Assembly (NCBI GenBank): GCA_041390825.1
Contig: JAWKPF010000004.1
Location: 129,088-193,087 of the forward strand
Source of the DNA: Thermomicrobiales bacterium
Lineage (GTDB): Bacteria > Chloroflexota > Chloroflexia > Thermomicrobiales > UBA6265
DNA: 64,000 bases
Direction: 5' to 3'
Part shown: positions 15,617-45,414 of the stretch, in pieces
How positions within the stretch are numbered: the first letter of the stretch is position 1
Layout of the letters: each line of letters starts with the position of its first letter
Notes under the pieces: generated by a model
What the model was told of the DNA's origin: nothing
The model's input: the letters and a program-made list of their open reading frames with translations, nothing else
Databases searched by the model: none
Made by a program: the position numbers and the translations under genes

Positions 15617-15625
15617 GGTTCTCCG

Positions 15626-17430: not shown

Positions 17431-17446
17431 CGCCGATCTCCGGTAG
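17399..17446 (+). pseudogene. Possible 15-codon stub of the cognate HEPN/DUF86 toxin gene (MNRKIASRLLDADLR*)
   Basis: The ATG overlaps the 3' end of the MNT gene in the usual coupled arrangement, but the frame stops after 15 codons. What follows is REP-like hairpins, not a HEPN body. Confidence 0.25.
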
Positions 17447-17600
17447 GGGCAATCCTCTGTGATTGCCCTTGTCACGCGGAATCCCAAGTCCGCGCTCAGT
17501 GCAATTTACCCCTACGCGATTGCTGAGAACATCTGCCGCTTCCACGAGATTCGTGTAGCGCAAGAATGGGGCACCCACAGGAGGCTGCCCTTACCAGCGC
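17447..17600. repeat. Two REP-like hairpins (GGGCAATC-CTCTGT-GATTGCCC then TTGTCACGCGG; GGGCA-loop-TGCCC then TTACCAGCGCG)
   Basis: Read directly at 17447-17479 and about 17568-17600. Same architecture as the repeats at 8767, 23361 and 50687. Confidence 0.6.
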
Positions 17601-17613
17601 GATGGCGACTTCC

Positions 17614-18822
17614 CTATCCGAACGTCGCGTCCAGGGCTGCTGATAGGTCGGCGATCAGGTCGGATGGGTCTTCGAGACCGACCGAGAACCGCAGGTGGCC
17701 GTAGCGGCGGAACGGTTCTGGATAGCGTTCCCAGCCGCCGCGGCCTTCTGGGCCGACATGGACGATGAGTGATTCGTCGTGGCCAAGGGAGACGGCGGAG
17801 GTGATTACCTTCAAGTTGCTCACGAAGCGGTTTTGCGTGTCCGCGTCGCCTTCGACCGCGAAGGCCAGCATGCCGCCGAAGCCATAGTCCCCGAACTGCC
17901 GCCTGGCTGATTCGTGTTGCGGGTGGGATGCCAGCCCCGGGTAGTAGACATAGGCGACGAAGGGGTCCTTCGCCAGGAATTCGGCGACCCGCTGGGCGCT
18001 TTCCACATGCTGCCGAAGCCGCAGGGGCAATGTCACCGAACCGCGGGTGATCATCCAGGCGTTGAACGGCGAAATCGCGCCGCCAACATCGACCAGCGCA
18101 TCGGCCTTGATCTTCGAGATCAGCGCGTTCGACCCGATCACCGCGCCACCCATGGCGTCGCCATGTCCATTGATGTACTTGGTCAGCGAGTGCGCCACCA
18201 AATCGGCGCCATGTTCCAGCGGACGGAACATCGGCGGAGGCGAAAACGTGGAATCGACCGTGAGCAGCGCTCCGCTTTCATGCGCGATTTCGGCCAGTGC
18301 CGCGATATCGGCTACTTCGGTGGTGGGGTTGGCGATCACCTCGGTGTGGATCAGCTTCGTTTCCGGGCGCATGGCGGCGCGCACTTCGTCCGGGTTGGTG
18401 ATGTCGACAAAGGTTGCGGAAATCCCGTATTTGTCCGGTAGCAGCTCATCGAATAACCGCCAGATGGCTTCGTAGGTGACATCGCTGAGGACGACGTGAT
18501 CGCCGCTCTCGAGCAGCGTGAAGAAGACTCCGTGCAGGGCAGCGACACCGGTGGCGAAGACGGCCGCCGCTTCGCCCCGTTCCAGCGCAGCCAGCTTTTC
18601 TTCCAGCCGGAGCTGGTTCAGCCCGGTGTTGCGGGTGTAGAAGAGGCTATTGGTGTCCGACCAGTCGATTCCGGTGGGGTCTTCCGGCAACGCATACGAG
18701 TTCGCCATTACGAGCGGTGTGCGAATTGCCCCGCTGCCGGCATCGATTTCATTGCCGATATGCACTGCTTGGGTAGCGAATGCCAGCGATTGCGGGTCGT
18801 GTTTGTCGGGTCGGAGGGTCAT
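17614..18822 (-). CDS. PLP-dependent Cys/Met-metabolism enzyme (methionine gamma-lyase / cystathionine gamma-synthase / O-acylhomoserine sulfhydrylase family)
   Basis: PLP-lysine motif HSLTKYINGHGDAMGG. Family-typical length and N-terminal FATQAVH. Confidence 0.85.
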   Translation of the reverse strand: MTLRPDKHDPQSLAFATQAVHIGNEIDAGSGAIRTPLVMANSYALPEDPTGIDWSDTNSLFYTRNTGLNQLRLEEKLAALERGEAAAVFATGVAALHGVFFTLLESGDHVVLSDVTYEAIWRLFDELLPDKYGISATFVDITNPDEVRAAMRPETKLIHTEVIANPTTEVADIAALAEIAHESGALLTVDSTFSPPPMFRPLEHGADLVAHSLTKYINGHGDAMGGAVIGSNALISKIKADALVDVGGAISPFNAWMITRGSVTLPLRLRQHVESAQRVAEFLAKDPFVAYVYYPGLASHPQHESARRQFGDYGFGGMLAFAVEGDADTQNRFVSNLKVITSAVSLGHDESLIVHVGPEGRGGWERYPEPFRRYGHLRFSVGLEDPSDLIADLSAALDATFG

Positions 18823-28901: not shown

Positions 28902-30266
28902 TTACGAGGCGAGCGCGACGAGTACGGCCTCCTCGGCGGTGCTACCGTCGGCGAGAACGATGCCGGCGGCTTGCCCGGAGATGAAGAGCGATTCGAACTC
29001 GGGGTAGCTGTTCTGCCAGAGCATGCTGCCGGTGGCGAGATCGACCGAGGTCACCGTGGGCGCCGAGCCCTCCTGAAATGCGGGGGTAAAGGTGAGCTCG
29101 CTGACGAAGACTTGCGCCGTTCCGGTAAACGAACCGTCGACGAGCGCCTCGGGTTGCGCCCAGAGCATTTCGCCGGTTTCGCCATCGACCATGACCAGCG
29201 CGTTCAGGTAGCTCACGGATGGGCCTGCGCCGACGATATGGGTGGCGTCGGCCAGAAGGGCATCGGCGCCGATGTTCTGGTTTTTCCAGCGAACTGCGCC
29301 GGTGGCGGCGTCGTATCCGGTCGCCGATTTCACCTCGAGCGAGCCGCCCGTGGCATACACAACCGCCGGAGCCGCGCCGTTGGTGAGGTACATGCGGCCG
29401 TAGCTGCCGTCATTGGCCAGTGGGGCAGACCAGGCAATGGCGCCGGTGGCGCCGTCGAGGGTGACGAGCGCCGCGGTTGCGTCGGTCAGGACCTCAGCGG
29501 CGATCGTGCCGGAACCGTTGCCCGCGAGCTCGAGTGTTCCTCCGGTGGAGGTAGCGGTTTGGCCAACCGGCGTCTGCCAAAGGATCATGCCGGTCGTTTT
29601 GTCGAGCCCGAAGGCCTGGACGTCCTGGCCCTCGGTTTCGGGACGTCCCAGCGCGACGAGGGGACCGCCCGCGATGTTTTCCCAGTCGGACACCGAGCCA
29701 ACCGGCAGCATCTGTTGCCAGGCGATCGCGCCGTCGCTCGCGCTCACGCCAGTCAGGCTGTTGTCGACGGAGAGGACGATGATGTCGTTCTCAGTGGTGA
29801 TGATTTCTGGCCACCCCTCGTAGCCATGCACAGCGCTCCAACGCTGGTCGCCAGTGGTTTCGTCGAAGGCGTAGACCATCTGGGAGGTCGACACGATGGC
29901 GAGACCGCTGCCGGTGGTCGCGGCGGAGGTGATTTCGCCCTGGAGCTGGTCGTAGGTGACCCGCCACATCTCGGTTCCGTCGAGGATGTTCAGGCCGACG
30001 ACCGCGATATGGGAGATGGCGCAGCCGGGGGAATTGACCAGGAGGGTCGCTTCGGTTGGGGTCCAGCCGACGACCTGGTAGTTCCCTGCTCCGTCATAGG
30101 TGTAGCGCCAGCGTTCCTGCGCCTGTGGGGCTTGCGCGGCCAGCTGGGGAGGGTCGCCGCAACCGACTGCACTCGCGGTTCGCGTTGGGAGCAGGATGAC
30201 TCCCATGAGGACGAGCGGCAGCACCGCGGCGAGGACCATCCGAGACCACTGGGTTGCACGCTCCAT
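28902..30266 (-). CDS. Secreted PQQ-like (BamB-like) beta-propeller repeat protein
   Basis: GAGGAG RBS before ATG 30266. Signal peptide. Repeated G-x-x-x-W motifs (GDQRWS, GMILWQ, GAIAWS, GAVRWK, GEMLWA, GSMLWQ). Confidence 0.7.
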   Translation of the reverse strand: MERATQWSRMVLAAVLPLVLMGVILLPTRTASAVGCGDPPQLAAQAPQAQERWRYTYDGAGNYQVVGWTPTEATLLVNSPGCAISHIAVVGLNILDGTEMWRVTYDQLQGEITSAATTGSGLAIVSTSQMVYAFDETTGDQRWSAVHGYEGWPEIITTENDIIVLSVDNSLTGVSASDGAIAWQQMLPVGSVSDWENIAGGPLVALGRPETEGQDVQAFGLDKTTGMILWQTPVGQTATSTGGTLELAGNGSGTIAAEVLTDATAALVTLDGATGAIAWSAPLANDGSYGRMYLTNGAAPAVVYATGGSLEVKSATGYDAATGAVRWKNQNIGADALLADATHIVGAGPSVSYLNALVMVDGETGEMLWAQPEALVDGSFTGTAQVFVSELTFTPAFQEGSAPTVTSVDLATGSMLWQNSYPEFESLFISGQAAGIVLADGSTAEEAVLVALAS

Positions 30267-30468
30267 TTCCGAACTCCTCATCATGTAAAGCGAAGCTGAG
30301 ACTCTGTCTACGCTGTTCCCTGAAACGACGATCTGGCCCGAACGGTTCCACACCTGCAGCAGGGGTTCTTGCGGACCTCGGGCGGCCAGGGTTGTGTTCG
30401 CGTTTCGTTCGGCGTAGCATCCAAGAAAATCCCAGTCTTGTCCCGGTCCGAAATCGCGAACAAGGAGA

Positions 30469-30996
30469 GTGATCATGCGTAGATTCGCACTCATGGTTCT
30501 CGGTCTTCTCGTGCTTGGTTTGGCGGCTCCCGTTGCTGCCCAGGACGCGACGCCAGAGGCATCGCCAGTGCACATGATGGGCTCGCTGGATATCACACCG
30601 GTGGATGGGGTCGTCTCGTTCACCCTCCTGGAGATTCCCGCCTCGGACGCGGTGGTCGACCAGGCTCCGGAAGGGGATAGCGCGGGCGATATTCTGGTCT
30701 TCGCCAATGTCTTGATGGACGAATCGGGCGAGATGCAGGTCGGAGCCGACCAGGGGTGGTGCGTGCGCACCAGTGTTGCTGGCGGCGCCTGGGAATGCAC
30801 CTGGACCATCTTCCTGGAGCAGGGGCAGATCGTGAGCCAGGGTCCGTTCTTCGACGCTGGACCGTCGACCATGGCGATCACGGGTGGCACGGGCGATTTT
30901 GCCGGGGCGCGCGGTCAACTGGAATTGAGCGCGAACGAAGACGGGTTGTTCGTCTTTGCCTACACGGTCATGCTGGATGAGGAAATGCCGGGATAG
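30469..30996 (+). CDS. Secreted dirigent / allene-oxide-cyclase-like beta-barrel protein
   Basis: Signal peptide ending VAAQD. C-terminal motif AITGGTGDFAGARG is typical of dirigent/AOC-like domains. Confidence 0.55.
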   Translation: MIMRRFALMVLGLLVLGLAAPVAAQDATPEASPVHMMGSLDITPVDGVVSFTLLEIPASDAVVDQAPEGDSAGDILVFANVLMDESGEMQVGADQGWCVRTSVAGGAWECTWTIFLEQGQIVSQGPFFDAGPSTMAITGGTGDFAGARGQLELSANEDGLFVFAYTVMLDEEMPG

Positions 30997-31047: not shown

Positions 31048-34000
31048 CTATTCGTCAGCGGTCTCCTCGGGGATGATGTACGCGTTGCATGACAGCGTCT
31101 CGCCACCGATGAGCACGACCCCGATCTGCCCATCCGGACTCAGATAGGTGAGCGGATCGAAGAGCGGCTCCTGATCGAGATCGCGCTGATTGCTGGCGCA
31201 CGATGCGATAAACGCGGCTGCGGTCTCCTCGGGGAGCGATTCGGTCAGCAGCCATGGACCAGGTTTCAGCCCGGAGAAGGTCGCGACGCCGTCGTCGTCC
31301 GTGGTGTCGATTTCGACCGGTGCGACCTGAGCAGTCTCGCCGGCAAGGGCGAGCAGCGAGACCTCGATGCCGGGCGCCGGTTCGTCACAATCCTCTTGCA
31401 GATCGGACTCGGGGCCGTAAACGTCGTAGCCTTCCGGGCAGACGTACGTCGTGAGGATGAGGGTTGCCGGAGCGGTCGGATTCGGCGTGGCGATTGGAGC
31501 CGGGGTAGGCGGCTTACCCGTGCCCGGCGTGGGAGTCGGCGACGGATGATCTGGCGGGGCCAGGTTGAACCAGTAGCACTCCAATGCGTCACCGGGCGCG
31601 ACGTGCCGCTCGATGGCGAACTGCGTCACCGGCGCCGATTCGAATGCGGCCTGCTGGCTGCCCGACGTTTGAACCGCGCAGAAGACGACGGCGCTTGTGT
31701 AGCCAGCCGGTGGTGTCTCGCTGATGAACAGCGGGCCGGGCGCGACCTCTTCCCAGGCGACGCTGCCGGTCGCGTCCGTGGTCTTTGTGAGCTCGGTGGC
31801 GGGACCGCCGAGCGTGAACGAGACGCCTTCCAGCGGGGTCGAGCATTTGGTCAGCAGGGCCTGATCCGAGTCGCTGTGCGGAGGCAGATATCCCGCGGGA
31901 CAGGCGTACTTGTGGATGGTGACGGTTGCGGGCGTCGTCTCGATATTGAACCAGAAGCAACCGATGACGGTGTCTGGCGTGGCCGGGTACTCGATCGTCC
32001 CATTCGAGATTTCCAGATCGAGGTACTCAGTCGGGTCGGCGGTGGAACCGGCCGGAGCGTGCCCGCAGAAGACGCGGACCGGCTGATAGTCGGACGCCAG
32101 CTCCGTGATCAGGATTGGTCCGGGCGGCACGTCGGTGAACAAGGCATACCCGGTTGTGCCGATTGGCAGGGTGGAATCGTAAGCGGCCGCTTCATTGCGC
32201 ACCTGGAACTCCACTCCATCGATGGGGGTGCAGGCGCCGTTCAGATCGAGCTGGCTGGCATGCTGGTAGTCATAGTCAGCCGGGCAGACGCTCTTGTACA
32301 CGTAGATGTCGACCGGAGGCGCCTCGACCGCAGCCCAATAGCAGGTGATAACCGAGTGTGGCTCGGCTGGATAGGCCACCCCTTCGTCGGTAATCGTGAG
32401 CGAGGTGTAGCTGCTGGGCGATTCCCCCACCATGGCCTGTCCGCAGTTGACCGCGACGGTTTGGTACTTCGGTGACAGTTCCGAGATGCGGAGCGGCGAC
32501 GGAGGCAGCTCCTCGAAGGAGACCGTGCCTTCCTTGCCGGTTGGCAAGGTGACATCCAGCGCATCCGGGGAGGGCTCGGTGCCCGACGTGTTTCCTGCCT
32601 GCACGCGGAACGGGACGCCGGCGGGCGTTTCCGAGCATTCGGCACGTATCCGGTCGTTGGTGAGATCGGCGAGACTGATGGTCGGCGGGCAGACGCGCAT
32701 CGTGATGGCGACCTGGGCAGGCTCGACGTAGGGAACATCGAACCAATAGCATTCCAGGGTGTATCCCCCGGACAGATAGGCATAGAGCGGCTCGGCGTTG
32801 TACCGCGCGAGGCTGTCGGGTTCTCCGGCCGTGCCTGGGTAGTAGTCACACCAGGCGGCCAACGGGCGGAAGCCGTTACCAGCGACCTGTTGGATCTCGT
32901 TGAAACCAGGACTCAGGTTGGTGAACGACACGTTTCCGATAGCATCGGTCACGGCCTCGGCTGGTGTCGTGAGCGGAGCTCCAGCAGTGAAGGCAACGCC
33001 TTCGGCCCGGGGAGCGCAATCGTCCACGAGGGCTTCGGCCGACTTGTACGCGTCGGTCCCTTCCGGGCAGGTGTAGGTGTGCAGCGTGACCGTGGCGGGA
33101 TCGGTCGAGGTTGCGCCAGCGGGCATATTCGCCCAGACGCATTCCAGGAAATAGCCGTCTTTCAACTCGGATGGCACGCTCCAGTTCTCGACGGTTACGG
33201 GGTCCAGGCTGCCAGTCGCTCCGGCTCCCACGAGCGTAAAGCGGCAGAACACCTTGGGCGGATCGTAGCCCTCACGCGGGAGTTCCGAGATGCGGAAGAT
33301 GCCTGGCGGGATGTCGGCGAACCGCGCAATGCCGTCTGCGCCGGTAATCGCGCTGATGGTCGTCTCTCCGTATGCGATCTTGAACTCGACACCGGGTTCG
33401 GAGGAGCAGTACATCGCGATTTCGATGTAGTTCGAACTGATTGCCGAAAAGCCCGGTGGGCAGATTCGCTTGTCCACATAGACCGATCCGGCCTTTGGCG
33501 GGCTGTCCGCCTTTCCAGTTGGGACGTTGAAGAAGTGGCACTCGATCACCTTGCCGTCTTCGATGGTCGCCGCGATGCCGCCATCGGCTACGGTCTGCTC
33601 GGCATAGACGTCTGTCAGGGCGAGGGCAGGCAGCCCGACATCGGTGGTCCTGCAGAGGGCGCGTTGCAACTCCTCGCCAGCAGTGCCCGGTTCGCCGATG
33701 CCCACGTTGCCGGGCGGTAATCCTTCGAATCTGGCAATTGCGGGGCCCTTTTCGAGGCGGGTCAAAGCGGTGAACGGCGCGCCGGTGGGGTAGTAGACCG
33801 CGATAACGACGCCTTCTTGCGGTGTCGGGCAGGCCACGCGAAGTTCTTCGTATGACTTGCCGGATGGATCGAAATCATCTGGGCAGCGCCACTTGAGAAT
33901 CGTGACGTGGCCGCCATCGTCCGCTGCCTTCCCCGTCGTTGCCATAGGAACTGTGAACCACTCGCAGGAATAGACGAGGGACGGATCGACATCCGAAAGC

Positions 34001-36213
34001 GGCATGGAAGGTTCGCCGGCGTTCAGGCGACCGGCATTGACATATGCGGGCTCCGCGCCCGCGGGCGCGGCTCCGCACCAGGCGTAGCCGTTGGCGAGCG
34101 AGTGGGGCGGGGTCGGCTGGATGTAAATATCGCCGGGCAAGACGCGGAAGGAGACAATGCCGTCAGCGCCGGTGGTCTCGGATGCGGTCAGTCCTCCGGC
34201 GTGCGTCAGATCGAACGTCACGCCCGGTTCTGGGTTGGTGCAGGCCGCGCGCCAGTCGTCGATCACGACGGTGTCGGGGTATTCGGGTCCGCACAGGTAT
34301 TTCTTGACGGTGACCGCAACATAGGCGTCATCCGGCAGCTCCTGGAACTCGAACCAGTAGCAACTCGTCTCGTACCCGCCTTCGATGTCGACTGTGACAG
34401 GAACCTCGGCATAGGCGGAGACTGGCGGAGCAGCTTCGCCGCGCGGATACGTTGTGCAGAAGAGCCGGTTCTGGCCGGAGTCTCCGAGGAGATTGAGCTC
34501 AGCTTCGCCGGGTGGGACATCCGGAAAAGAGATCGGCGCGCCGCCGGAGATGGCTGCGGTGAGGTCGGCGCCGCTTTCTGCCGAGAAGAGGCGAACCTGC
34601 GCGCCGTCGTTCGGCGTCTGGCAGAGGTCGAGATAGTTCTGCAGGGACCTGGTGGGGTCGTAGAGCTCATCAGCGCAGACGTATCCCTGCACCGTGACGC
34701 TCCCCGTGCCGTTGCCAGCCGCCACCACCGTGGGCGCAACTCCTTCGACGTAGAAAGAAACACAATTCAGTGTGTACCGTTCCGGAATGTCGTAGGTGAC
34801 GAGGTCGCCATCGTACGTCGGAAGATGAAAGGATGTGCCATCCAGTTCTCCTTGCGGTGGCGCAGGATCGCAGTAGGCCGGTCCAGCCAGGTAGCCTGGG
34901 GGTGCTTGCTGCGCGATGGTCACCATGCCCGCGGGGATGTTCTTCCATTCGAGGAAACCGTTCGTTCCGGTGTTTCCGGTGAACTGTTCGCCGTCGGCCG
35001 TGGTGAGGGTGAATTCGATGTTCAGGCCGGGAATCGAGCAACCCACCGTGAGCGCATGCAGCGTCATGTCAGCGGTGTCGTAGTCGGGTGGGCAGAAGAA
35101 GGGGATCATGGCGACGGTGGACTGGGGGACAGGAATGTTGAAGAGCTCGCAGTGCAGCGCTTGTCCAGGCGCAACCTGTCCGGTGATCTTCTTCCCATCG
35201 GACTGCACAAGGGACAGGTCGGGAGATCCGGCGGGGGTACCGACCGGGGCGACGCTGCAATAGGGCTGCGCGTATCGGTAGCCATCGGGGAGCGATTCGA
35301 GGATCGTCACGTTGCCGGATGGCACATCGGTCCAGGCAAGGAGGCCCTGGGCATCGGTCGTGGTGGTGCGGGGTTCGCCGGTGCTGGCCTGGAGCGTGAA
35401 GGAAAAGCCGTCTCCCACGGTGGTGCAGGCAGCTTTCAGCGCGCCGAGGGTCATGTCCGCTGTGTTGTAGTTGACCGGGCAGCGGTAATTTGTGAGGTGA
35501 ACTTCACCGGCCGCGGCGATGGCGTCCGGGGTGAGCGCCAGCGCGGGGTCGCCAGACTGGACGTTGAACCAGCGACAGTAGGTCTGGGCGTAGCTGGCCA
35601 GATTTGGGTCGCTCAGCCCGATATCGATCGTTCCCCCGCTGACGGGGAAGTAAAGGTATTGATCGGCGCCCGGTCCACCGGTGACCTCACAATAGACCCA
35701 GGGATCGGGCGCGCCCTGGGGGACGGTCTCGGAGATGGTGTATCCGGTTCCGAGCGGGATATCGGGCCAGGCGGCGATTCCGTCCCCACCGGTGGAGCGG
35801 GTATCGCCCGGATAAGCCGGGTTTTGGGTGTTCAGCGAGAAGGCGATGCCGGCCAACGGCTGGACACAGTTGGCGAGCGCTCCCGACGCATCGACGGTCG
35901 AAAGGTCGAACCCGGGCGGGCAGCTTCGTGCCTCGGCAATCGCAGCGGCAACACCACCGGCCTGGGGGTCCGGTTCAGCTTCGGCGGTGCTGGTGGGTTC
36001 CGGCGCGGGTTCTTCGGTGACCTCGGGTTCTGGAGCCTCACCTTCGCCGTCGCTTTGGACTTCTGCGATGGGCGTTTGCTCCTCGCCGTCCTGGGCGCCC
36101 ACGCCGGACGGCGCAAGGGCGGGCAGCATCGAGAAGAGGACAGTTGCCAGGACGAGTACGGTAAAGAACCGGGCAGTAGCGGAACGACCTGAAGGACGAT
36201 ACGACAGCTTCAC
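31048..36213 (-). CDS. Giant secreted protein (about 1721 aa) made of 12 tandem Cys-framed Cna-B/SpaA-like (prealbumin-fold) repeats
   Basis: GTG 36213 after GAGGAG. Signal peptide and acidic Pro/Glu linker. 12 repeats, each starting x-Y-x-C-P-x-x-[YF]-D ... C ... G-V-x-F and carrying T-D-x-x-G ... P-G ... I-x-E ... P-x-G-Y ... C ... C-x-W-F. No LPXTG. Confidence 0.75.
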   Translation of the reverse strand: MKLSYRPSGRSATARFFTVLVLATVLFSMLPALAPSGVGAQDGEEQTPIAEVQSDGEGEAPEPEVTEEPAPEPTSTAEAEPDPQAGGVAAAIAEARSCPPGFDLSTVDASGALANCVQPLAGIAFSLNTQNPAYPGDTRSTGGDGIAAWPDIPLGTGYTISETVPQGAPDPWVYCEVTGGPGADQYLYFPVSGGTIDIGLSDPNLASYAQTYCRWFNVQSGDPALALTPDAIAAAGEVHLTNYRCPVNYNTADMTLGALKAACTTVGDGFSFTLQASTGEPRTTTTDAQGLLAWTDVPSGNVTILESLPDGYRYAQPYCSVAPVGTPAGSPDLSLVQSDGKKITGQVAPGQALHCELFNIPVPQSTVAMIPFFCPPDYDTADMTLHALTVGCSIPGLNIEFTLTTADGEQFTGNTGTNGFLEWKNIPAGMVTIAQQAPPGYLAGPAYCDPAPPQGELDGTSFHLPTYDGDLVTYDIPERYTLNCVSFYVEGVAPTVVAAGNGTGSVTVQGYVCADELYDPTRSLQNYLDLCQTPNDGAQVRLFSAESGADLTAAISGGAPISFPDVPPGEAELNLLGDSGQNRLFCTTYPRGEAAPPVSAYAEVPVTVDIEGGYETSCYWFEFQELPDDAYVAVTVKKYLCGPEYPDTVVIDDWRAACTNPEPGVTFDLTHAGGLTASETTGADGIVSFRVLPGDIYIQPTPPHSLANGYAWCGAAPAGAEPAYVNAGRLNAGEPSMPLSDVDPSLVYSCEWFTVPMATTGKAADDGGHVTILKWRCPDDFDPSGKSYEELRVACPTPQEGVVIAVYYPTGAPFTALTRLEKGPAIARFEGLPPGNVGIGEPGTAGEELQRALCRTTDVGLPALALTDVYAEQTVADGGIAATIEDGKVIECHFFNVPTGKADSPPKAGSVYVDKRICPPGFSAISSNYIEIAMYCSSEPGVEFKIAYGETTISAITGADGIARFADIPPGIFRISELPREGYDPPKVFCRFTLVGAGATGSLDPVTVENWSVPSELKDGYFLECVWANMPAGATSTDPATVTLHTYTCPEGTDAYKSAEALVDDCAPRAEGVAFTAGAPLTTPAEAVTDAIGNVSFTNLSPGFNEIQQVAGNGFRPLAAWCDYYPGTAGEPDSLARYNAEPLYAYLSGGYTLECYWFDVPYVEPAQVAITMRVCPPTISLADLTNDRIRAECSETPAGVPFRVQAGNTSGTEPSPDALDVTLPTGKEGTVSFEELPPSPLRISELSPKYQTVAVNCGQAMVGESPSSYTSLTITDEGVAYPAEPHSVITCYWAAVEAPPVDIYVYKSVCPADYDYQHASQLDLNGACTPIDGVEFQVRNEAAAYDSTLPIGTTGYALFTDVPPGPILITELASDYQPVRVFCGHAPAGSTADPTEYLDLEISNGTIEYPATPDTVIGCFWFNIETTPATVTIHKYACPAGYLPPHSDSDQALLTKCSTPLEGVSFTLGGPATELTKTTDATGSVAWEEVAPGPLFISETPPAGYTSAVVFCAVQTSGSQQAAFESAPVTQFAIERHVAPGDALECYWFNLAPPDHPSPTPTPGTGKPPTPAPIATPNPTAPATLILTTYVCPEGYDVYGPESDLQEDCDEPAPGIEVSLLALAGETAQVAPVEIDTTDDDGVATFSGLKPGPWLLTESLPEETAAAFIASCASNQRDLDQEPLFDPLTYLSPDGQIGVVLIGGETLSCNAYIIPEETADE

Positions 36214-36610
36214 AATTCGACTCCTCACATGTAGCAGCAAACAAATACGAACACCGAACCATTGCCAATTACCGGGGTATCGAGCGGCGGCGAGGTGACG
36301 ATGCCCAGTTCGGTCACCTCGGGCCGGGAACCCCGTTGCGTGCTTTCGATCCACCGACCGGCCGCACCCTACAAAGCTATGGGTTTGGAGGGGCTCCTGG
36401 CATCATGGAAAACATGTAAATCTGAGCGGCAGTAGTCCGAAGCGCCCGACCTCACCCGACATACTCGAAAATCTTGGTAAATCTACATTCCTTAGTTTGG
36501 ATATCAGGGCGTCCTGATGGGTTTTTGGGCTGGGCAGCGGTGGTTGCTCTCCTACAATGGCCCGGCGTGCGATGCGAATACGTGCCGTCGAGAAACCTGA
36601 AGGAGTAGCA

Positions 36611-37705
36611 GTGACCATTGCAGGAGCGTGCAGCCGGACTTCGCCGAGATTCGACCAAGCCGCCCGGCAGTACGACGCCTTGCTTCTCCTTTCGTTTGGC
36701 GGACCTGAGGGCCCCGAGGACGTCGTTCCCTTTCTCGAAAATGTCACCCGCGGACGGAATGTGCCACGCGAGCGGCTGGACGAAGTGGCGGAGCACTATC
36801 TCCATTTCGGCGGGGTGAGCCCGATCAATGCGCAGAACCGCGCGTTGATTGCCGCGCTGCGTGACGAGTTGCGCCGTCATGAGATTCTGCTGCCGGTCTA
36901 TTTCGGCAATCGCAACTGGGATCCCTATGTCACCGATACCATAGGGGAGATGCGCTCTGACGGAGTGCAACGCGCGCTCGTCTTCGTGACCTCGGCGTTC
37001 AGTTCCTACTCCGGTTGCCGCCAGTATCGGGAAGATGTCGCCCGGGCAGTCGATGCGCTCGGGGAGCCAGCGATCGCATTCGACAAGATTCGCGGGTTCT
37101 ACAACCATCCAGGCTTCATCGACACCATGATCGCGCTGACTGCCGAGCGGCTCGATCGAATTCCGGTCGATCGGCGAGCGACTACCGAGGTGATTTTCTC
37201 CGCGCATAGCATTCCCGAATCGATGGCCAAAGGGTGCGCGTATGAGAAGCAACTGGCAGAGGCGTCGCGCCTGGTGGCACGGATGCTGGAACTGCCATCC
37301 TGGCGGCTGGCCTATCAGAGCCGCAGCGGATCGCCGCTGACACCCTGGTTGGAACCAGATATTCTCGATGTGCTCGAGACGCTGCCAGACGCCGGATTCA
37401 CCGACGCGGTGATCGTGCCGATCGGTTTCATTTCAGACCATATGGAAGTGCTGTTCGACCTCGACCATGAGGCGGCCGAGCGGGCTGCCGAACTGGGTCT
37501 GGGGTTCCAGCGCGTGCCGACTGCAGGGACGCATCCGCGATTCGTCGCCATGATCCGTGAGTTGATCGAAGAGCGGATGACGTGCGATCCAACACGCCAA
37601 GTGGTTGGCAACTTTCCACCAACGCACGATGTTTGCCCGCTCAATTGCTGCCTGATCGGCACAGGGCGCCCAACGGCTCCCGCGATTGCGGCTACACGCT
37701 CGTAA
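36611..37705 (+). CDS. hemH: Ferrochelatase (coproporphyrin ferrochelatase type)
   Basis: GTG 36611 after GAAGGAG. Motifs LLLSFGGPEGPEDV, YFGNRNWDPY and SAHSIPE. C-terminal Cys cluster CPLNCC plus internal SGCRQY suggests a [2Fe-2S] type. Confidence 0.85.
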   Translation: MTIAGACSRTSPRFDQAARQYDALLLLSFGGPEGPEDVVPFLENVTRGRNVPRERLDEVAEHYLHFGGVSPINAQNRALIAALRDELRRHEILLPVYFGNRNWDPYVTDTIGEMRSDGVQRALVFVTSAFSSYSGCRQYREDVARAVDALGEPAIAFDKIRGFYNHPGFIDTMIALTAERLDRIPVDRRATTEVIFSAHSIPESMAKGCAYEKQLAEASRLVARMLELPSWRLAYQSRSGSPLTPWLEPDILDVLETLPDAGFTDAVIVPIGFISDHMEVLFDLDHEAAERAAELGLGFQRVPTAGTHPRFVAMIRELIEERMTCDPTRQVVGNFPPTHDVCPLNCCLIGTGRPTAPAIAATRS

Positions 37706-37814
37706 GCCGGGCAAAACGTAAGCTTTCCGCATTTCATCGGCTAGAATGACTTTGAAACAGATGGATACACTGGCGCACGCGCCACTATCCTGCCTGGATC
37801 AGGATTCGCATTCA

Positions 37815-38756
37815 ATGGCACTCGGGAACCACATTCGGATAGGAGCGCGCGGCTCGCGACTGTCGCTCCGGCAGGCTGAATTGGTTCGTGCTCGATTGGC
37901 ATTGGCGCATCCCGATCGGGAAATCTCGATTACGGAGATCACCACCACCGGCGACCTCACGATCGATACCCCGCTCCCCGAAATTGGCGGCAAGGGCGTC
38001 TTTACGCTCGAAATCGAAGAGGCGCTGCGGGTGGGACAGATCGACCTGGCGGTCCACAGCTTGAAAGATTTGCCGACCGAGCCGACGCCGGGCATTGTGA
38101 TTGGGGCAGTTCCGGAGCGGGTCGACGTATCAGACGCGGTAGTCAGCCGCTCCGGGGTCCCCGTGCTCGAGTTGCCAGCACATGCCGTGATTGGCACCAG
38201 CAGTCACCGGCGCGCCGCGCAGTTGCTGCGGATGCGGCCGGACTTTCGGCCGGTGTCGATCCGAGGCAATATCGAGACCCGCATTCGCAAGACGATGGAT
38301 CCCAACGGGATGTATGACGCAGCAGTTTTGGCGAGCGCCGGTCTGAAGCGAATTGGGCTCCTCGATGCCGCGATCGAGCAATTGCCGTTGGATCTGATGC
38401 TGCCCGCGCCGGGGCAGGGGGCGCTCGGCGTGCAATGCCGGGACGACGCCGAATCGATTGCACTGCTGGCAGCTATCGACAATGTCGCTGCTCGTCTGGC
38501 GACCAGCGCGGAACGATCGTTTCTCTCCGGGGTGGGCGGCGGATGCTCAGCGCCGATCGCCTGTTACGGTGAGTTGACCGGCAATACGTTGCAGTTGCGA
38601 GGACGGATTGTGGCGCTCGACGGGTCGAGCCAGGTCGATGTCATGCTGGAGCGGGAGATCTTCGATGAAGCGGGAGCGATGGCCGCGGGCGCCGCGCTGG
38701 CGCTGGAAGCATTGCAATCTGGCGCGGCCGAGTTGTTGGCGGCGACAGCGGTATGA
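37815..38756 (+). CDS. hemC: Hydroxymethylbilane synthase (porphobilinogen deaminase)
   Basis: IRIGARGSRLSLRQA N-terminus. HSLKDLP. Cofactor Cys in GGGCSAPIA. Confidence 0.9.
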   Translation: MALGNHIRIGARGSRLSLRQAELVRARLALAHPDREISITEITTTGDLTIDTPLPEIGGKGVFTLEIEEALRVGQIDLAVHSLKDLPTEPTPGIVIGAVPERVDVSDAVVSRSGVPVLELPAHAVIGTSSHRRAAQLLRMRPDFRPVSIRGNIETRIRKTMDPNGMYDAAVLASAGLKRIGLLDAAIEQLPLDLMLPAPGQGALGVQCRDDAESIALLAAIDNVAARLATSAERSFLSGVGGGCSAPIACYGELTGNTLQLRGRIVALDGSSQVDVMLEREIFDEAGAMAAGAALALEALQSGAAELLAATAV

Positions 38757-39550
38757 ACGCACTTGAAGGCTTGCGGGTGGTCAATACACGTTCGACGCAC
38801 CAAGCGGGTGAGTTGAACGATCTGCTGCGCGCACAGGGCGCAGTTCCTTTGTCGTACCCGTGTATCGCTATCGAACCCGTCTCCAAGATCGAGGAGTTCG
38901 ATGCGGTGCTGTCGCAGCAATCGTTCGATTGGATTTGCCTCACCTCGCATAACGCGGTGGAGATGCTGGCGCATCGGATCGCTGCCGTTGGTATCGATCG
39001 GGCGCGTGTGACAGCGCCACATTTCGCCGCGGTTGGGACCGCCACGGCCGTCTCACTCAAGAAGCGTCTCGACATCGACGCCGATTTCACTCCGGCATCG
39101 TTCGACGCGGATTCCATGGTGCGCGAATGTCCGATTCATGAGGGCGAACGCGTGCTGATGCCAGTGTCAGACCGAGCGTCCGAGGAACCGGCCTCCTTTC
39201 TAACCGAGAAGGGCGCGTTGGTAACGCGCATGGTCGTCTATCACACGGTGGTCGGCAAAGGCGGAGTGGATGCCGGCACATTGTTGAAGGATGGACAAGT
39301 GGGGGCGATTACCTTCACGAGTCCGTCGGCGGTCTCCGGCTTTGTCAAACGGCTCATGAAAGAGGAAGGCAACATCGACGACACACGGCAAGTGCCGATT
39401 GCCTGTATTGGTCCACGAACGAGGGACCGGGCAATTTCGGAAAACATGTTGCGGGCGTTTAGTCCCAAGGAGCATACGTTGCACGGACTCCTGGATGCGT
39501 TGAGTGACGTGGTGGCGTCTCGCCGGCAAGGAGGGCGACTGTGGGGATAG
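38753..39550 (+). CDS. hemD: Uroporphyrinogen-III synthase
   Basis: ATGA overlap with hemC. HemD-like size and the pattern [10 protein letters not shown] ... ITFTSPSAV. Confidence 0.8.
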
Positions 39551-40590
39551 CAATAGCGTCTCGGCCATCGGCTGAGACGGCGGGGTTTCCGATCGACCGG
39601 CCACGCCGCCTGCGGAGGACCACCGCGATACGCGAACTGGTGCGTGAGCATCGGATCTCGCCGTCAGATCTGATTCTGCCTCTGTTCGTCTGCGAGGGGA
39701 CCGATATCCAGCGGCCGATCGGCTCGATGCCCGGACAGTTCAATTGGTCGATCGACCGGTTGGGGCCCGAGGTAGCGAGTCTGGGCAAGCTGGGAATTCA
39801 CGCGGTGATGCTCTTTGGCATCCCAAAGTCCAAGGACGATTGCGGTTCCGATAACTTCAATCCAGATGGCATCGTGCCACGCGCGATTCGGGCAATCAAG
39901 GATGCCAATCCGGAGATGATCGTGATCTCGGACATGTGCTTCTGTGAGTACACCGATCACGGGCATTGCGGATTGATCAATGTTCCTGAGAGCGCCCACT
40001 TCGATGCCAGCTTGCCGCACGGCTATCTGCTCAACGATCCATCCCTGGAACTGCTGGCGCGCGCTTCGGTGGTGCATGCGGAAGCCGGGGCGGACATGAT
40101 CGCTCCTTCGGCGATGCTGGACGGCCAGGTGGGCGCGATTCGCGCTGCGCTGGATCAGACGGGATTCGAGCATATTCCGGTGATGGCCTATGCAGCCAAG
40201 TTTGCCAGCGGGTTCTACGGACCGTTCCGCGAGGCAGCCCAAAGCGCGCCAAGCTTTGGGGACCGCAAGCAGTACCAGATGGACCCCGCCAACCGGCGCG
40301 AGGCAATGCGCGAGGCAGAACTGGATGTGGCCGAAGGCGCGGACATCATTATGGTCAAGCCTGCGCTGCCGTATCTGGACATCGTGAGCGATCTGCGAGC
40401 CACGTTCGATCTGCCCATTGCGGCCTATCAGGTGAGTGGGGAATACGCTATGCTCCATGCCGCTGCGGCGAATGGCTGGATCGACCTGCGGCGATGCGCC
40501 ATGGAATCGCTGATTGGTATCAAGCGAGCTGGCGCTGACATGATCCTCACCTACTTCGCGAAAGATGTTGCGGGCTGGAGCAACGGGTGA
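39541..40590 (+). CDS. hemB: Porphobilinogen synthase (5-aminolevulinate dehydratase)
   Basis: RPRRLR motif. Zn-site Cys cluster [14 protein letters not shown]. Schiff-base Lys regions (IMVKPAL, YQVSGEY). Confidence 0.9.
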
Positions 40591-41636
40591 GTGTGAGCGC
40601 GCCGCCGGTGGCAAAGAGCCGGTTCCTCAGACGAATTTGCGGCGAGCCAACCGATGTCACCCCGGTGTGGTTGATGCGCCAGGCCGGGCGATACATGCCT
40701 GAGTACCGTGCGCTGCGCGCGAAGCATTCGCTGCTCGAGATCATCAATAACCCTGAGCTGTCGGTCGAGGTCACGCTGCAGCCGGTAAACGCGTTCGATC
40801 TCGACGCGGCCATCATCTTTTCCGACATCTTGCCGCCGCTGGTTGGAATGGGCCTTCAACTTTCCTTTTCGAAGGGGGAAGGACCGGTCATCCACAATCC
40901 AGTGCGCACCGCGGCTGATATCTTCGCTCTGAATACTCCCGATCCTCGCGAAACAATGCGTGGCACGCTCGAGGCGATCCGGCTGTTGCGTCCCGAGTTG
41001 GATAGCCGCGGATTGCCACTCATCGGTTTCGCCGGCGCGCCATTTACCCTGGCCTGCTATGCAGTAGAGGGGGGCAAGAGCCGCTATCACGAGAACACCC
41101 GGATTCTGATGCTCTCCGAGCCAAAGCTCTGGGATGAGCTCATGACCAAACTGGCGACGACCGCGGGTCATTTCTTGCTCGCCCAGGCCAAGGCCGGCGC
41201 TGACGTGCTCAATGTCTTCGACACCTGGGTGGGTGAGTTGGCGCCTCATCATTACCGGGCATACGTGCTGCCGTATGTGCAGCAGATGATCTCCATTGCC
41301 GCGCAAGCCGGGAAGCCGATCATCCTCTTCGGAGTCGGGAACGGACCTTTGCTCGAGTTGATGGCCACCTCGGGCGCAACGGTGATCGGAGTCGACTGGC
41401 GGATCGATTTGTCGCTAGCTCGTAAACGCTTGGGACCTGGGATCACGCTGCAGGGCAATTTGGACCCAGTGTCGTTGCTGGCTCCGTGGGAGGTGCTGCA
41501 ACGCGAGATCGACGAGGTCTTTCGGCAGGTCAGTGGCGACCAGCGTTTCATCTTCAATCTGGGGCATGGGGTGCTTCCACAGACGCCGGTGGACAACGTG
41601 CGCCGATTGGTCGACTACGTCCATCAGGTCCGATGA
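40587..41636 (+). CDS. hemE: Uroporphyrinogen decarboxylase
   Basis: GTGA overlap. Motifs [15 protein letters not shown] and FDTWVG. Confidence 0.9.
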
Positions 41637-43045
41637 CCGAACAGCGGGATGTGATCGTGGTTGGCGGCGGTGTGGCCGGGTTGACGGTCGCCTGGCGGCT
41701 GGCGCAGCGGCGTCCAGAGGCGTCGATCGTTGTGCTGGAAGGAACGGACCGGACGGGAGGACGTATCCGTACCGAACGCTTGGCGCACGCAGAGGGAGAG
41801 TTCGTCATCGAGCTGGGGGCCGATTCACTGCTCGCCTCCAAGCCATGGGCAAAGCAGCTCTGTCTCGACCTGGGAATGGAGGCCGAGCTCTGTTCGGTGC
41901 AGCCAGCTGAGAACCCGACTGCGCTGTGGCGCAATGGGCGCCCGGTTGATTTGCCAAGAGGATTGACGGTGCTGGCGCCGACAGACGAAGAGGCATTGCT
42001 GGCATCGCCGTTGCTTTCCCGTCAGGGTGCGCTGCGCGCCCTGCAGGAACCGAACATACCGGCGCGCCAGAGCGATGAAGACGAAACGTTGGGCAGCTTC
42101 GCGCGCAGGCGATTTGGGCAAGAGTATCTGGATGTCGTTGCAGAGCCGCTACTAGCAGGGATTTACAACGCCGACCCGGATGAACTCAGCCTGCGCGCGG
42201 CGTTTCCGCATCTCCTGGCATTGGAGCGGGCGCATGGCAGCGTCATCGAAGGCGCAAGAAGCACGCCGGCGCCAGCGGATCGGACGCCGTTCTTTGCCCC
42301 TCTTGGCGGGGTGCAGTGTCTGACCGATCGACTCAGGGACGCGCTCGGTTCGGTCGTGCGCACCCGGAGCCGGGTGGAACTGCTGGAACGGTTGCCGCAA
42401 GGGGGCTATCGCGTCACGCTCACTACAGGCGAGCAGTTGCGTGCGTCCGCGGTAGTGATGGCCGCTCCGCTTTCGACCGCTCGGGCGCTGTTGCCGCAAG
42501 TCGCGCCCGAAACGCGCCAATGGCTTCAACGGCTCAAGGTGGCGGCATCGGGAGCGATCGTGCTGGCGTGGCCAGATCGCCAGATCGACCGGCCGCTCTC
42601 AGGCTACGGCCTGGTTATGCCGAAACGCGAAGGACAACCGTTCAACGCGGTCACGGTGATGTCGCGCAAGTACCCTAGCCGCGCGCCAGAAGGATGGAGC
42701 CTGATGCGCTTTTTCTTTGGAGGCTATCGGTCGCCGCAGACATTGCAGTTGGACGACCACGCGCTCTTGCAGACGGCGAAGCGCTTTGCGGAGCGGGCGG
42801 TTGGCGCGACCGGGGATCCAGAGATCGTGCGGATCGCGCGCTGGACCGAAGGGAGCCCGATCTACCGGCTCGGACATCTGGATACAGTCGCAGCGCTGGA
42901 AGGGTGCCTGCCGCCAGGGTTGTTCGTTACGGGAGCGCCGTTTCGCGGGCCGGGGATTCCGGACGTGACGCGCAGCGCCACTGAACTCGCGCATCGAATT
43001 GCGGCCTCGCCCATACTGGCGGCCGCGCTGGAGAGAGACTCATGA
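41633..43045 (+). CDS. hemY: Coproporphyrinogen/protoporphyrinogen oxidase (HemY/CgoX type, FAD)
   Basis: ATGA overlap. Dinucleotide fold VIVVGGGVAGL. HemY-like length. Confidence 0.85.
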   Translation: MTEQRDVIVVGGGVAGLTVAWRLAQRRPEASIVVLEGTDRTGGRIRTERLAHAEGEFVIELGADSLLASKPWAKQLCLDLGMEAELCSVQPAENPTALWRNGRPVDLPRGLTVLAPTDEEALLASPLLSRQGALRALQEPNIPARQSDEDETLGSFARRRFGQEYLDVVAEPLLAGIYNADPDELSLRAAFPHLLALERAHGSVIEGARSTPAPADRTPFFAPLGGVQCLTDRLRDALGSVVRTRSRVELLERLPQGGYRVTLTTGEQLRASAVVMAAPLSTARALLPQVAPETRQWLQRLKVAASGAIVLAWPDRQIDRPLSGYGLVMPKREGQPFNAVTVMSRKYPSRAPEGWSLMRFFFGGYRSPQTLQLDDHALLQTAKRFAERAVGATGDPEIVRIARWTEGSPIYRLGHLDTVAALEGCLPPGLFVTGAPFRGPGIPDVTRSATELAHRIAASPILAAALERDS

Positions 43046-43983: not shown

Positions 43984-45156
43984 TTATGCGCTCGGGGCGC
44001 TGAGGTACTGGCCGGCGACGAAGCCGGTGAGATCGCCAGAGGAGATTTCGAACCAGACGAGACCTTCGGCTTCGGTGGGACCGCTGACGACGGTGACCGT
44101 CGCGCCGGTTTCCAGTTGGCCGAGCGGATCGCCCTCGGTGGAGGCCGTGGACCGGACGTTGAGCGGACCGTCTGACACCTGAGCTGCCGCGCCAACTGTG
44201 ATGCCACCGGTGAGGAAGTCGCCCGCGACATAGCCGGTTACGGCCGCGTCACCAGCGCCGAAGGTGACGGGATACCAAGAATAGTCACCACCCAGAACGG
44301 GCGCGTCGTTCACCGTGCCGACCGCGCCGTCGGCCAGTTGGCTGACGACATCGGAGTCGACGGAGGCATCGGCGCGCAGGTTGACCGATTCGCCATCGCC
44401 CGCGATGAAGACATAGGAGCCCGTTGGGAACGTGGACGATGCGGTGGCGGCGCTGGCTTCTGGTGTGGCCGTGGCTTCAGGTGTCTCGGACGATTGCGCG
44501 CCCGCCGCGGCTTCAGTTGTCGTTGCGCTGCTGGCTGCGCCGGGAACCGGGCCGAGATAGACGCCGGCAAGCCAGCCCTGCTCACCGTAGGCAGTATCGA
44601 CCTGATACCAGTCGAGGTCGTCGACCACGTCCGGTCCGCTGACAATGGTGACGAGGTCACCTTCGACCAAGCCGCTGATGACTTCGGATGAGGCGCCGGC
44701 TTCGGCGCGGAGGTTGAGGGAATCGGCCACGATCTCGCGCTCGGTGCCAGGGGCGAGCTGGGCGCCACCCTTGGCGATGCCGAACTGATCGGCGGCGATC
44801 CAACCGGTGATGCCGCCTTCGGTCTCGACCTGATACCAGTCGACTCCGCCGATCGGCTCAGGGCCGGCCAGGACGGTGACCGTGGCGCCTTCGTCGATCT
44901 CGGTCAGGGTGGCGGCTTCTGAGCCGGCCGCGTTCTTGACGCTGGCCTGACCGTTGAGCAGCATGAGCTCGGTGCCATAGGGGTACTTGCCGGTGGAGAG
45001 CGCCGCAGCGGCCGCATCGGCCTCGGTTTGCGGTGTTTCCGTCGCGGCTGGAGTGTCCTGTGCTGCAATGGATCGCGCCGGAATGCCGGTCAGCGATGCT
45101 CCGAGCAAAGCGGCCAGTGCCAGCGAGCCGATTGCTCCGCGTAATCGATGGTTCAT
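43984..45156 (-). CDS. Secreted protein with four bacterial SH3 (SH3b) repeats
   Basis: AGAGGGGA RBS. Signal peptide ending IAAQD. Four repeats of type LN[LV]R...G...V...L..G..VT...GP....G..WY.V....G.GW. Confidence 0.7.
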   Translation of the reverse strand: MNHRLRGAIGSLALAALLGASLTGIPARSIAAQDTPAATETPQTEADAAAAALSTGKYPYGTELMLLNGQASVKNAAGSEAATLTEIDEGATVTVLAGPEPIGGVDWYQVETEGGITGWIAADQFGIAKGGAQLAPGTEREIVADSLNLRAEAGASSEVISGLVEGDLVTIVSGPDVVDDLDWYQVDTAYGEQGWLAGVYLGPVPGAASSATTTEAAAGAQSSETPEATATPEASAATASSTFPTGSYVFIAGDGESVNLRADASVDSDVVSQLADGAVGTVNDAPVLGGDYSWYPVTFGAGDAAVTGYVAGDFLTGGITVGAAAQVSDGPLNVRSTASTEGDPLGQLETGATVTVVSGPTEAEGLVWFEISSGDLTGFVAGQYLSAPSA

Positions 45157-45414
45157 CGTTCCCCTCTTCGTTCTTCGCGGCCGCAGGGTTCGACCGCGGA
45201 TTGGTGCACGGCGTTCGCGGCAGCCACCGCGCGCAACGTGCGGATATCCGAAATGCCTGGCCACACGCGTGCGCGCGTTGCCGGACAGACTGCGCGGGGT
45301 ATCGAACGGTTACGGGGGTAGCCTCATCATAGCAGGATGTGACCGTACACTTCTAGCCGTTCTGGACGTACGCAGGAAACCTGGGCGGTCTATGGGAAGC
45401 GTTGGGGGCGGTCT

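Follow-up and report, generated by a model that had tools for sequence, protein, structure and literature searches.

The 64,000-nucleotide (nt) window analyzed in this study (contig JAWKPF010000004.1 of assembly GCA_041390825.1, a Thermomicrobiales bacterium) carries a minus-strand gene, 31048..36213 with the stop codon included, for a 1721-amino-acid (aa) protein built from 12 repeats, R1 to R12, each framed by four Cys residues. The array is an unstudied variant of the well-known SpaA-like stalk type, within a large Thermomicrobiales family. We favor, with moderate confidence, the explanation that the product is exported by the Sec pathway and, as a fibre-like protein of the surface or the extracellular space without enzymatic function, serves as a stalk of the fibrillar-adhesin kind. 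A first-pass annotation of this DNA had described a secreted 12-repeat protein of 1721 aa at this place, leaving the minus strand unstated, and our analysis confirmed it.

Cysteine frame and fold of the repeats

The product contains 48 Cys residues, that is, four in each of the 12 repeats and none outside the repeat frame. The four residues, C1 to C4, are spaced by approximately 18, 54–64 and 32–38 residues within a repeat, with 19–46 residues between repeats. The first-pass annotation had listed this frame and the twelve repeat openings, all of which were present in the order given: CPPGFD, CPVNYN, CPPDYD, CADELYD, CGPEYPD, CPDDFD, CPPGFS, CPEGTD, CPPTIS, CPADYD, CPAGYL and CPEGYD. The motifs G-V-x-F, T-D-x-x-G, P-P-G-x-x-x-I-x-E-x-x-P-x-G-Y and C-x-W-F-N were also found, with degenerate forms in R4 and R6 among others. 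The repeats, approximately 125 aa each, share only 17–35% pairwise identity (mean, 25%), and no tandem repeat was detected at the DNA level in the gene region; therefore, the array is old and not the result of a recent expansion. Unlike the window protein with its diverged repeats, the homologue P0008 contains runs of near-identical internal repeats, the mark of a recent expansion.

Every homologue, even at 25% identity, retains the Cys quartets, and the repeat and Cys pattern is far beyond chance. To describe conservation across the family, 814 near-full-length domains from the 156 family representatives in hand were aligned to a single-repeat model. C1, C2 and C4 were conserved in 100% of these domains and C3 in 97%; C3 was displaced by merely 1–3 columns in all but one of the remainder, so that approximately 813 of the 814 domains carry all four Cys residues. 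Each domain of the set either had the full Cys frame or was a generic SpaA domain, free of Cys, from a giant protein; domains with just two of the four Cys residues, sought in order to read the pairing from co-loss, were not found in the set.

Pfam, AlphaFold2 and Foldseek agreed on the Cna-B/SpaA-like prealbumin fold that the first-pass annotation had assigned to the repeats. The whole protein matched SpaA (PF17802; 118.5 bits against a cut-off of 23.1, in 7 stretches), SpaA_4 (PF24514; 46.5 bits against 27.3), SdrD_B (61.8 bits against 29.7) and CarboxypepD_reg (41.8 bits, above its cut-off). The variant that the annotation could not name thus sits in the named families SpaA and SpaA_4, as a very abundant subtype. 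Single repeats mostly scored just below the cut-offs (17–24 bits). Their matches spanned mainly the core, positions ~29–78 of the repeat, with SpaA_4 able to reach ~121, and strand A and the helical loop between C1 and C2 were covered by no Pfam match.

For an AlphaFold2 model of the R10–R11 pair, 27 repeat pairs of the window protein and its homologues were aligned as input; the model had a predicted local distance difference test score (pLDDT) of 95 and a predicted template-modeling (TM) score of 0.82. The modeled repeat comprises strand A (positions 2–9), a short helix (20–26), strands B–E, strand F (75–86), a hairpin and strand G (114–124). A Foldseek search of the PDB with this model returned, at E values from 1e-8 to 1e-6, pilins and adhesin stalks of Gram-positive bacteria, namely Lactobacillus rhamnosus SpaA (5f44) and SpaC, GBS52 (3phs), BcpA, the Bacillus anthracis TIE protein (6fwv), SdrD B and a Mobiluncus adhesin. 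The model of R1 (pLDDT 93.9) showed this fold too, elaborated by additional loops and a short helix, and its Foldseek matches were pilin-type domains only (TM 0.4–0.5). The whole protein had no sequence match in the PDB, the repeat profile matched just the core motif of pilins and adhesins there, and these sequence and profile searches returned no solved structure for any member of the Cys-framed subtype. Taken together, these results securely assign the repeats to the CnaB/SpaA-type prealbumin-like domains, which have a seven-strand β-sandwich fold. What sets the variant apart is a helical excursion of 18 residues from strand A to strand B, together with the four Cys residues.

Direct-coupling analysis of the 814 domains (zero-sum gauge, 7140 couplings) bore on the pairing of the Cys residues. 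The couplings 81–120 and 84–117 between strands F and G put C83 opposite C118 as an antiparallel pair, in agreement with the modeled extents of the two strands, and the couplings 8–31, 13–26 and 10–28 join the ends of the A–B excursion at C9 and C27. A small C-terminal domain of many relatives, described below, retains four Cys residues with the C1–C2 stretch cut to 10 residues, which fits a local loop. Because the Cys residues are invariant and never odd in number, because they are flanked by these couplings, and because the shortened C1–C2 stretch of the small domain fits a local loop, we infer that C1–C2 closes the A–B excursion and that C3–C4 bridges strands F and G. Two disulfides per repeat, as the first-pass annotation proposed, are very likely, judging from the Cys invariance and the evolutionary couplings. 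A C1–C4 disulfide in place of the isopeptide bond between the first and last strands was rejected, since the A–G register sets C9 at least three residues from C118: the outward-facing A–G contacts 3–115, 5–117 and 7–119 put C9 several residues away from it.

The three strongest meaningful couplings were K6–E70, E70–N122 and K6–N122 (ranks 1, 3 and 4 of the 7140), and Lys and Asn/Asp co-occurred among the family domains with an odds ratio of 42. By this covariation, K6, E70 and N122 appear to be the Lys-Glu-Asn isopeptide triad of CnaB domains, the other hallmark of the fold, which the first-pass annotation missed. The triad was complete in only four of the 12 repeats of the window protein, R6, R7, R10 and R11, and these most likely form a Lys-Asn isopeptide bond. 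Within its own clade (P0001–P0006 and P0015; P0001 is the window protein), the triad was kept in only 2–5 domains per protein, full-length members having 12–13 domains. The deeper homologues P0007 and P0010–P0013 kept it in nearly all of their 13–16 domains. All Cys residues were retained throughout, in triad-rich and triad-poor homologues alike. A 2025 survey reported that disulfides are prevalent in SpaA_2, SpaA_3 and SpaA_4 isopeptide domains and that 42.7% of Chloroflexota isopeptide domains have disulfides (PMC12617251).

The repeats share with SpaA_4 and SpaA domains the core G-V-x-F ... T-D-x-x-G ... P-x-G-x-Y-x-I-x-E-x-x-P-x-G-Y, and the triad spacing of 64 and 52 residues is closest to that of an SpaA_4 example, K704/E766/N814, with 62 and 48 (PMC12617251). 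They differ from the Pfam models in strand A and the Cys-closed loop, which the models leave uncovered, and in the eight of 12 repeats without a complete triad. As in the SdrD B and Cna B stalks, the tandem CnaB-type domains may act as a spacer that keeps a terminal functional region apart from the wall; a Foldseek match to the SdrD A2-A3-B1-B2 structure and the SdrD_B match in Pfam back the likeness to B repeats. In contrast to the staphylococcal B repeats, the window protein has no LPXTG and no recognizable A region, and it has predicted disulfides where the B repeats have none; its host is a Chloroflexota member, whereas that of the staphylococcal MSCRAMMs is a Firmicute.

Extracellular Ig-like pilin domains with both an isopeptide and a disulfide bond also occur in Corynebacterium diphtheriae SpaA and SpaD and in Actinomyces FimP, as papers on FimP and SpaD reportedly describe (PMC3485203; PMC4014117). 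SpaD (4hss) was among the Foldseek matches. The actinobacterial pilins, three-domain proteins that sortase polymerizes, contain a single disulfide, in one domain; the window protein, in contrast, has two invariant predicted disulfides in each of 12 domains of a single chain without a sortase signal. A Mobiluncus mulieris adhesin fragment (5u5o/5u6f) resembles the window protein in having a related stalk fold with several kinds of cross-link, namely disulfide, isopeptide and ester bonds, and both structures were matched by Foldseek (TM up to 0.49 for R1). It differs in that identity is only 12–22%, and no ester-bond (Thr-Gln) domain was detected by Pfam in the window protein.

Export, homologues and anchoring

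The translated N-terminus has a basic n-region and a 20-residue hydrophobic core followed by V-G-A↓Q-D (the arrow marks the predicted cleavage site), and a hydrophobicity scan marked aa 12–38. Signal peptidase would cleave at VGA↓QD, leaving a mature protein that starts at Gln41, with ~1681 aa, ~176 kDa and a calculated pI of ~4.05. The A↓Q-D/N motif at the end of the signal peptide is kept in P0002–P0009. The product is rich in Ala (11.6%), Pro (10.3%), Thr (9.4%) and Gly (9.2%). It ends in ...CNAYIIPEETADE, the last residues being IIPEETADE, and a whole-protein scan revealed no LPXTG-like, [YFW]PxTG or YPK pilin motif anywhere and no hydrophobic segment beyond the signal peptide. Translation and scans thus bore out the Sec-type signal, the acidic Pro/Glu-rich linker and the C-terminus without LPXTG or transmembrane segment that the first-pass annotation had reported. 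A TPGTG in the Pro/Thr-rich linker (aa 1563) might be taken for a cryptic sorting motif; this reading was dismissed because the sequence is missing from the linkers of the homologues. Ala↓Gln-Asp ends the signal peptides of the repeat protein and all its homologues (...VGA↓QDGEE) and also that of a neighboring dirigent-like protein (...VAA↓QDATPE); it may be a lineage-typical cleavage context, possibly yielding an N-terminal pyroglutamate.

A word-indexed search found just eight homologues, of 1093–2213 aa and 25–66% identity. An exhaustive profile search with a repeat pair returned 12,231 representative clusters at E≤1e-3 and 722 at E≤1e-30; compared with it, word-indexed searches (9, 1 and 3 matches) were very insensitive here. 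The 722 clusters, together with the near-universal Cys residues, indicate that the four-Cys frame is not peculiar to the window gene. Every relative with an organism name came from a Thermomicrobiales metagenome-assembled genome (MAG), and the relatives were annotated as ‘hypothetical’, ‘prealbumin-like fold domain-containing’ or ‘MSCRAMM family protein’. A scan of a genome collection with an R1 alignment gave three loci, in one Thermomicrobiales MAG and two ‘uncultured Chloroflexia’ MAGs, and a scan of the same collection with the whole protein gave no confirmed locus.

The homologues share the signal peptide, a conserved R1, a Pro/Thr/Gly linker and an R12-type repeat. R1 is 47–75% identical across homologues that are only 25–66% identical overall, and R12 is 43–66% identical. 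The number of repeats, which the first-pass annotation had suggested comparing, varied from 6 to 17 among the relatives. The R4 position of P0002 and P0003 holds a different Cys-framed module (…SYLCPPEATFDD…), which indicates that single modules are swapped while the rest stays collinear. In one homologue locus (L004), P0007 (2213 aa) is directly followed by a 2227-aa paralogue with the same Pfam families (4151–10792 and 10989–17672 of the locus), and in another (L001) a second SpaA-repeat open reading frame (ORF) lies upstream (19–2430); relatives thus have tandem paralogues, whereas the window has none. At 9872–15171 of a third locus (L003, an ‘uncultured Chloroflexia’ MAG), at least three overlapping ORFs make up the homologue, owing to either assembly-error frameshifts or decay into a pseudogene.

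Many homologues add, at the C-terminus, a small four-Cys domain of ~105 aa ending in ...VYNCG. The window protein, P0002 and P0006 all end at the same point before it. Beyond this small domain, other members carry a Pro/Thr linker and [YF]PNTG or LPXTG, followed by a hydrophobic tail or a Sortase domain; 34 of the 156 proteins had a Pfam Sortase domain at the C-terminus (E 1e-19 to 2e-21, with TLITCGG). The relatives with sorting signals lack an R1-type head and, conversely, the R1-headed proteins of the set never have a sorting signal, which indicates that the absence of an anchor is a trait of the subfamily and not a truncation. In the 64-kb window, tblastn found no remnant of the small four-Cys domain and no sortase, and no sortase was found next to the homologues in their loci. 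The sortase-anchored or sortase-fused Thermomicrobiales relatives, such as P0054 (‘MSCRAMM family protein’), P0018 and P0022, are like the window protein in their four-Cys repeats, R12-like domain and Pro/Thr/Gly linkers; unlike them, the window protein stops right after R12 and has an R1-type head.

The sortase-fused relatives are more unusual than the window protein itself. In single ORFs that include P0014, P0016, P0018, P0022, P0027, P0051 and P0072, the stalk is followed by the small four-Cys domain, a Pro/Thr linker, K-[YF]-P-N-T-G and the Sortase domain. Hydrophobic segments lie between the motif and the Sortase domain in P0022 and P0051, and none was present in the C-termini of P0014, P0016, P0018 and P0072. 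This fusion of substrate and sortase in one polypeptide suggests self-anchoring in cis. [YF]PNTG dominates the sorting-like motifs of the family (YPNTG, 40; FPNTG, 11; LPxTG variants, ~10 in all) and would escape standard lists of sortase-motif expressions such as that of PMC12617251.

Proposed role and alternatives

In the stalk model that we favor, the acidic ~176-kDa protein left after cleavage at VGA↓QD would fold outside the cytoplasm into a rod of 12 CnaB/SpaA-type β-sandwich domains joined by linkers of 2–4 residues. The rod would be ~50 nm long, an estimate from typical domain size and not a measurement. Each domain would bear the 18-residue helical excursion between strands A and B and two staples, one (C1–C2) shutting the excursion and the other (C3–C4) tying the antiparallel strands F and G near the chain exit. 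R6, R7, R10 and R11 would also form an autocatalytic Lys-Asn isopeptide bond with Glu as the catalyst, as is typical of the fold, and the other eight domains, having lost the triad, would depend on disulfides alone. The middle repeats would act as a rigid spacer withstanding proteases and heat, with R1 as the probable distal head contacting a ligand and the Pro/Thr linker and R12 as the probable cell-proximal end; we propose this orientation because a similar C-terminal module directly precedes the wall-sorting signal in relatives. Since the R1-headed subfamily has no sorting signal, the protein would either associate non-covalently with the envelope or leave the cell for the matrix. We infer in this way the rod length, the orientation, the adhesive or spacer role, and the disulfide and isopeptide chemistry.

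A surface role is supported by the relatives with LPXTG or [YF]PNTG and a hydrophobic tail, or with a fused Pfam Sortase domain, and by a relative that NCBI names ‘MSCRAMM family protein [Thermomicrobiales bacterium]’. The conserved ends and variable middle support a stalk with specialized ends. Among the features of fibrillar adhesins, export and an array of stalk domains, here 12 in tandem, were found; an adhesive domain and a cell anchor were not. The first-pass annotation had proposed an envelope, S-layer-like or adhesin fibre: the adhesin-like stalk is the part that we favor, and the S-layer part gained no support, as no SLH or wall-binding module was found.

Several points weigh against the stalk model. 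Pfam revealed stalk-type families only and no known binding domain, and R1 has the fold of the other repeats, with decorations. That the protein stays with the cell is assumed, as no anchor of known kind was found in it, and its organism is an uncultured MAG. The pairing of the Cys residues derives from topology and couplings and not from S–S or N–C distances, and the couplings between the Cys columns themselves, uninformative artefacts of invariant columns, were left unused. The family statistics come from the 150 best matches to a profile that contains the Cys residues, which enriches them for Cys-framed domains. For the triad, the outward A–G contacts imply a register of i+112, with K6 four residues from N122, whereas the core contacts 4–120 and 6–122 fit i+116.

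The repeat protein could instead be a freely secreted scaffold of the matrix or biofilm, a stable cross-linked filament or spacer and not a cell-attached adhesin. We regard this as possible but clearly less probable than a stalk. It would account for the lack of a covalent or recognizable non-covalent anchor and for the very acidic character of the protein (calculated pI ~4.05), and the absence of sorting signals from the whole R1-headed subfamily looks selected and not accidental. However, the R12-type module resembles the module beside the sorting signal of anchored relatives, which suggests a wall-proximal role, and two specifically conserved ends better fit a bridge between two partners than a bulk filler. 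The missing anchor would also be solved if the N-terminal hydrophobic segment remained uncleaved in the membrane, with the rod pointing outward and R12 at its tip. The long h-region of ~20 residues, within the marked aa 12–38, speaks for such an anchor, but the small-x-Ala↓Gln-Asp site of signal-peptidase type is kept in all homologues and in an unrelated secreted neighbor, and in anchored relatives it is the end of the similar C-terminal module that adjoins the wall-sorting signal; we therefore consider an N-terminal anchor unlikely.

A role as an S-layer or wall-building protein of the Thermomicrobiales envelope appears more doubtful still. The protein is large, abundant-looking, acidic and rich in Ala, Pro, Thr and Gly, and the wall of Thermomicrobium roseum was reportedly described in 1980 as unusually protein-rich. 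Against this, Pfam and NCBIfam gave no SLH, S-layer, lattice-forming or wall-binding domain at E≤10, tandem CnaB domains in solved structures make stalks and pili and not lattices, and the relatives are sortase substrates. Searches of the literature on the Thermomicrobia envelope and Chloroflexi sortases yielded nothing usable and nothing that ties such proteins to the Thermomicrobia wall. Already disfavored, and very improbable in our view, is a sortase-polymerized pilin subunit or a covalently wall-anchored MSCRAMM. The fold matches pilins, and there is a weak match to the NCBIfam model of the SpaH/EbpB major pilin, but this match (NF033902) scored 27.9 bits against a cut-off of 95. The protein has no sorting motif, C-terminal hydrophobic tail or YPK motif, no sortase is encoded in the 64-kb window or next to homologues, and Pfam found no N-terminal ligand-binding A region (IgG-like N2-N3 or other adhesive domain).

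The favored stalk model creates no new category, as tandem SpaA-like stalks are well known and the combination with disulfides has already been surveyed in Chloroflexota. If our interpretation holds, it describes a CnaB/SpaA stalk in which two invariant disulfides lock each domain, with isopeptides in the domains of deeper-branching homologues that were lost from two thirds of the domains in its own clade. This would amount to a natural experiment that asks how far covalent cross-links are redundant in extracellular mechanical proteins, and the repeats might be a source of very stable modular protein rods. A bolder and unlikely proposal is that the R1-headed, anchor-less subfamily forms a sortase-free strut of ~50 nm in the Thermomicrobiales envelope, in which the ancestral, self-forming isopeptides have mostly given way to enzyme-dependent disulfides; if true, it would provide a natural test case for the trade-off between the two kinds of covalent staple. 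The study also adds to the thin knowledge of Chloroflexota cell-surface architecture. To our knowledge, no such protein has been studied in Chloroflexota.

Feature map and genomic context

The minus-strand ORF extends from 36354 to 31048, and the GTG at 36213 is a plausible start codon, preceded by a Shine–Dalgarno-like GAGGAG read from the sequence (36221–36226, minus strand) with a 7-nt spacer; the stop codon lies at 31048–31050. Coding of 31048–36213 on the plus strand was rejected, as the plus-frame translation is full of stops. The product is 100% identical, at equal length, to the NCBI entry ‘MAG: hypothetical protein R2855_00725 [Thermomicrobiales bacterium]’. The gene region gave no Rfam match. 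No informative promoter or terminator was found in the upstream intergenic region, where each search gave one match, on the opposite (plus) strand and at about chance level. Table 1 lists the features of the gene.

Table 1. Features of the repeat-protein gene, in window positions
Feature	Position	Strand	Remarks
Signal peptide, aa 1–40	36094..36213	-	Translation and hydrophobicity scan; cleavage predicted
Acidic Pro/Glu-rich linker, aa 41–89	35947..36093	-	Translation
R1, N-terminal ‘head’ repeat, aa 90–219	35557..35946	-	4 Cys; extra loops; no triad Lys
R2, aa 237–361	35131..35505	-	4 Cys; Asn at position 6, so no isopeptide Lys; best SpaA_4 match, aa 266–359
R3, aa 366–490	34744..35118	-	4 Cys; triad absent (P/Q/Y)
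R4, aa 505–624	34342..34701	-	4 Cys; triad absent (G/L/E)
R5, aa 633–756	33946..34317	-	4 Cys; Lys present, Glu and Asn absent
R6, aa 769–898	33520..33909	-	4 Cys; complete Lys/Glu/Asn triad
R7, aa 910–1031	33121..33486	-	4 Cys; complete triad
R8, aa 1041–1161	32731..33093	-	4 Cys; triad absent (T/Q/D)
R9, aa 1167–1297	32323..32715	-	4 Cys; triad incomplete (M/E/A)
R10, aa 1302–1425	31939..32310	-	4 Cys; complete triad; in AlphaFold2 pair model
R11, aa 1430–1552	31558..31926	-	4 Cys; complete triad; in AlphaFold2 pair model; best Pfam SpaA stretch
Pro/Thr-rich linker, aa 1553–1583	31465..31557	-	Longer and Gly-rich in homologues
R12, conserved C-terminal repeat, aa 1584–1715	31069..31464	-	4 Cys; no triad; best SdrD_B and CarboxypepD_reg match
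C-terminal tail EETADE and stop	31048..31068	-	No sorting motif, hydrophobic segment or small terminal domain

The repeat gene stands alone. Downstream and convergent to it is a gene for a dirigent/allene-oxide-cyclase-like protein with its own signal peptide (30469–30996, plus strand), followed by a PQQ_2 β-propeller gene (28902 to ~30266, minus strand). The 662-aa PQQ_2 ORF, 28902–30890 on the minus strand, overlaps the dirigent-like gene on the other strand; translation probably begins at Met 30266 (or 30284) instead, which would give ~454 aa and remove the overlap. This candidate Met sits just before a hydrophobic signal-like segment ending in AVGC. Upstream and divergent is a haem-biosynthesis cluster (36557–43045, plus strand) with genes for ferrochelatase, HemC, HemD, HemB and HemE and an amine-oxidase-type, protoporphyrinogen-oxidase-like gene.

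The secreted neighbors are as the first-pass annotation described them. They are not conserved next to homologues and therefore give no functional link. An operon link was rejected, as neither the PQQ propeller gene nor the dirigent-like gene is present beside the homologues in L001–L004. The neighbors of the homologues are instead an ABC-F ATPase, a DinB_2 protein, a class-III aminotransferase, SH3_3 or M23 proteins, or a second paralogue. The class-III aminotransferase adjoins the homologues in L001 and L002; our guess is that it is the related HemL step.

Large SH3_3-repeat proteins are encoded a few kb to ~12 kb from the repeat gene in the window (43984–45264 and 48474–50633, both on the minus strand) and in two related genomes (L002, 17795–19789; L003, 17492–19459). 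The window copy at 48474–50633 also has a GW domain, and Peptidase_M23 was matched weakly by the copies in L002 and L003. The genes seem to form a loosely conserved neighborhood of wall-associated proteins. Across the window, G+C content is 60–67%, and GC skew is positive in every 2-kb bin, so that the cumulative skew climbs steadily with no switch point.

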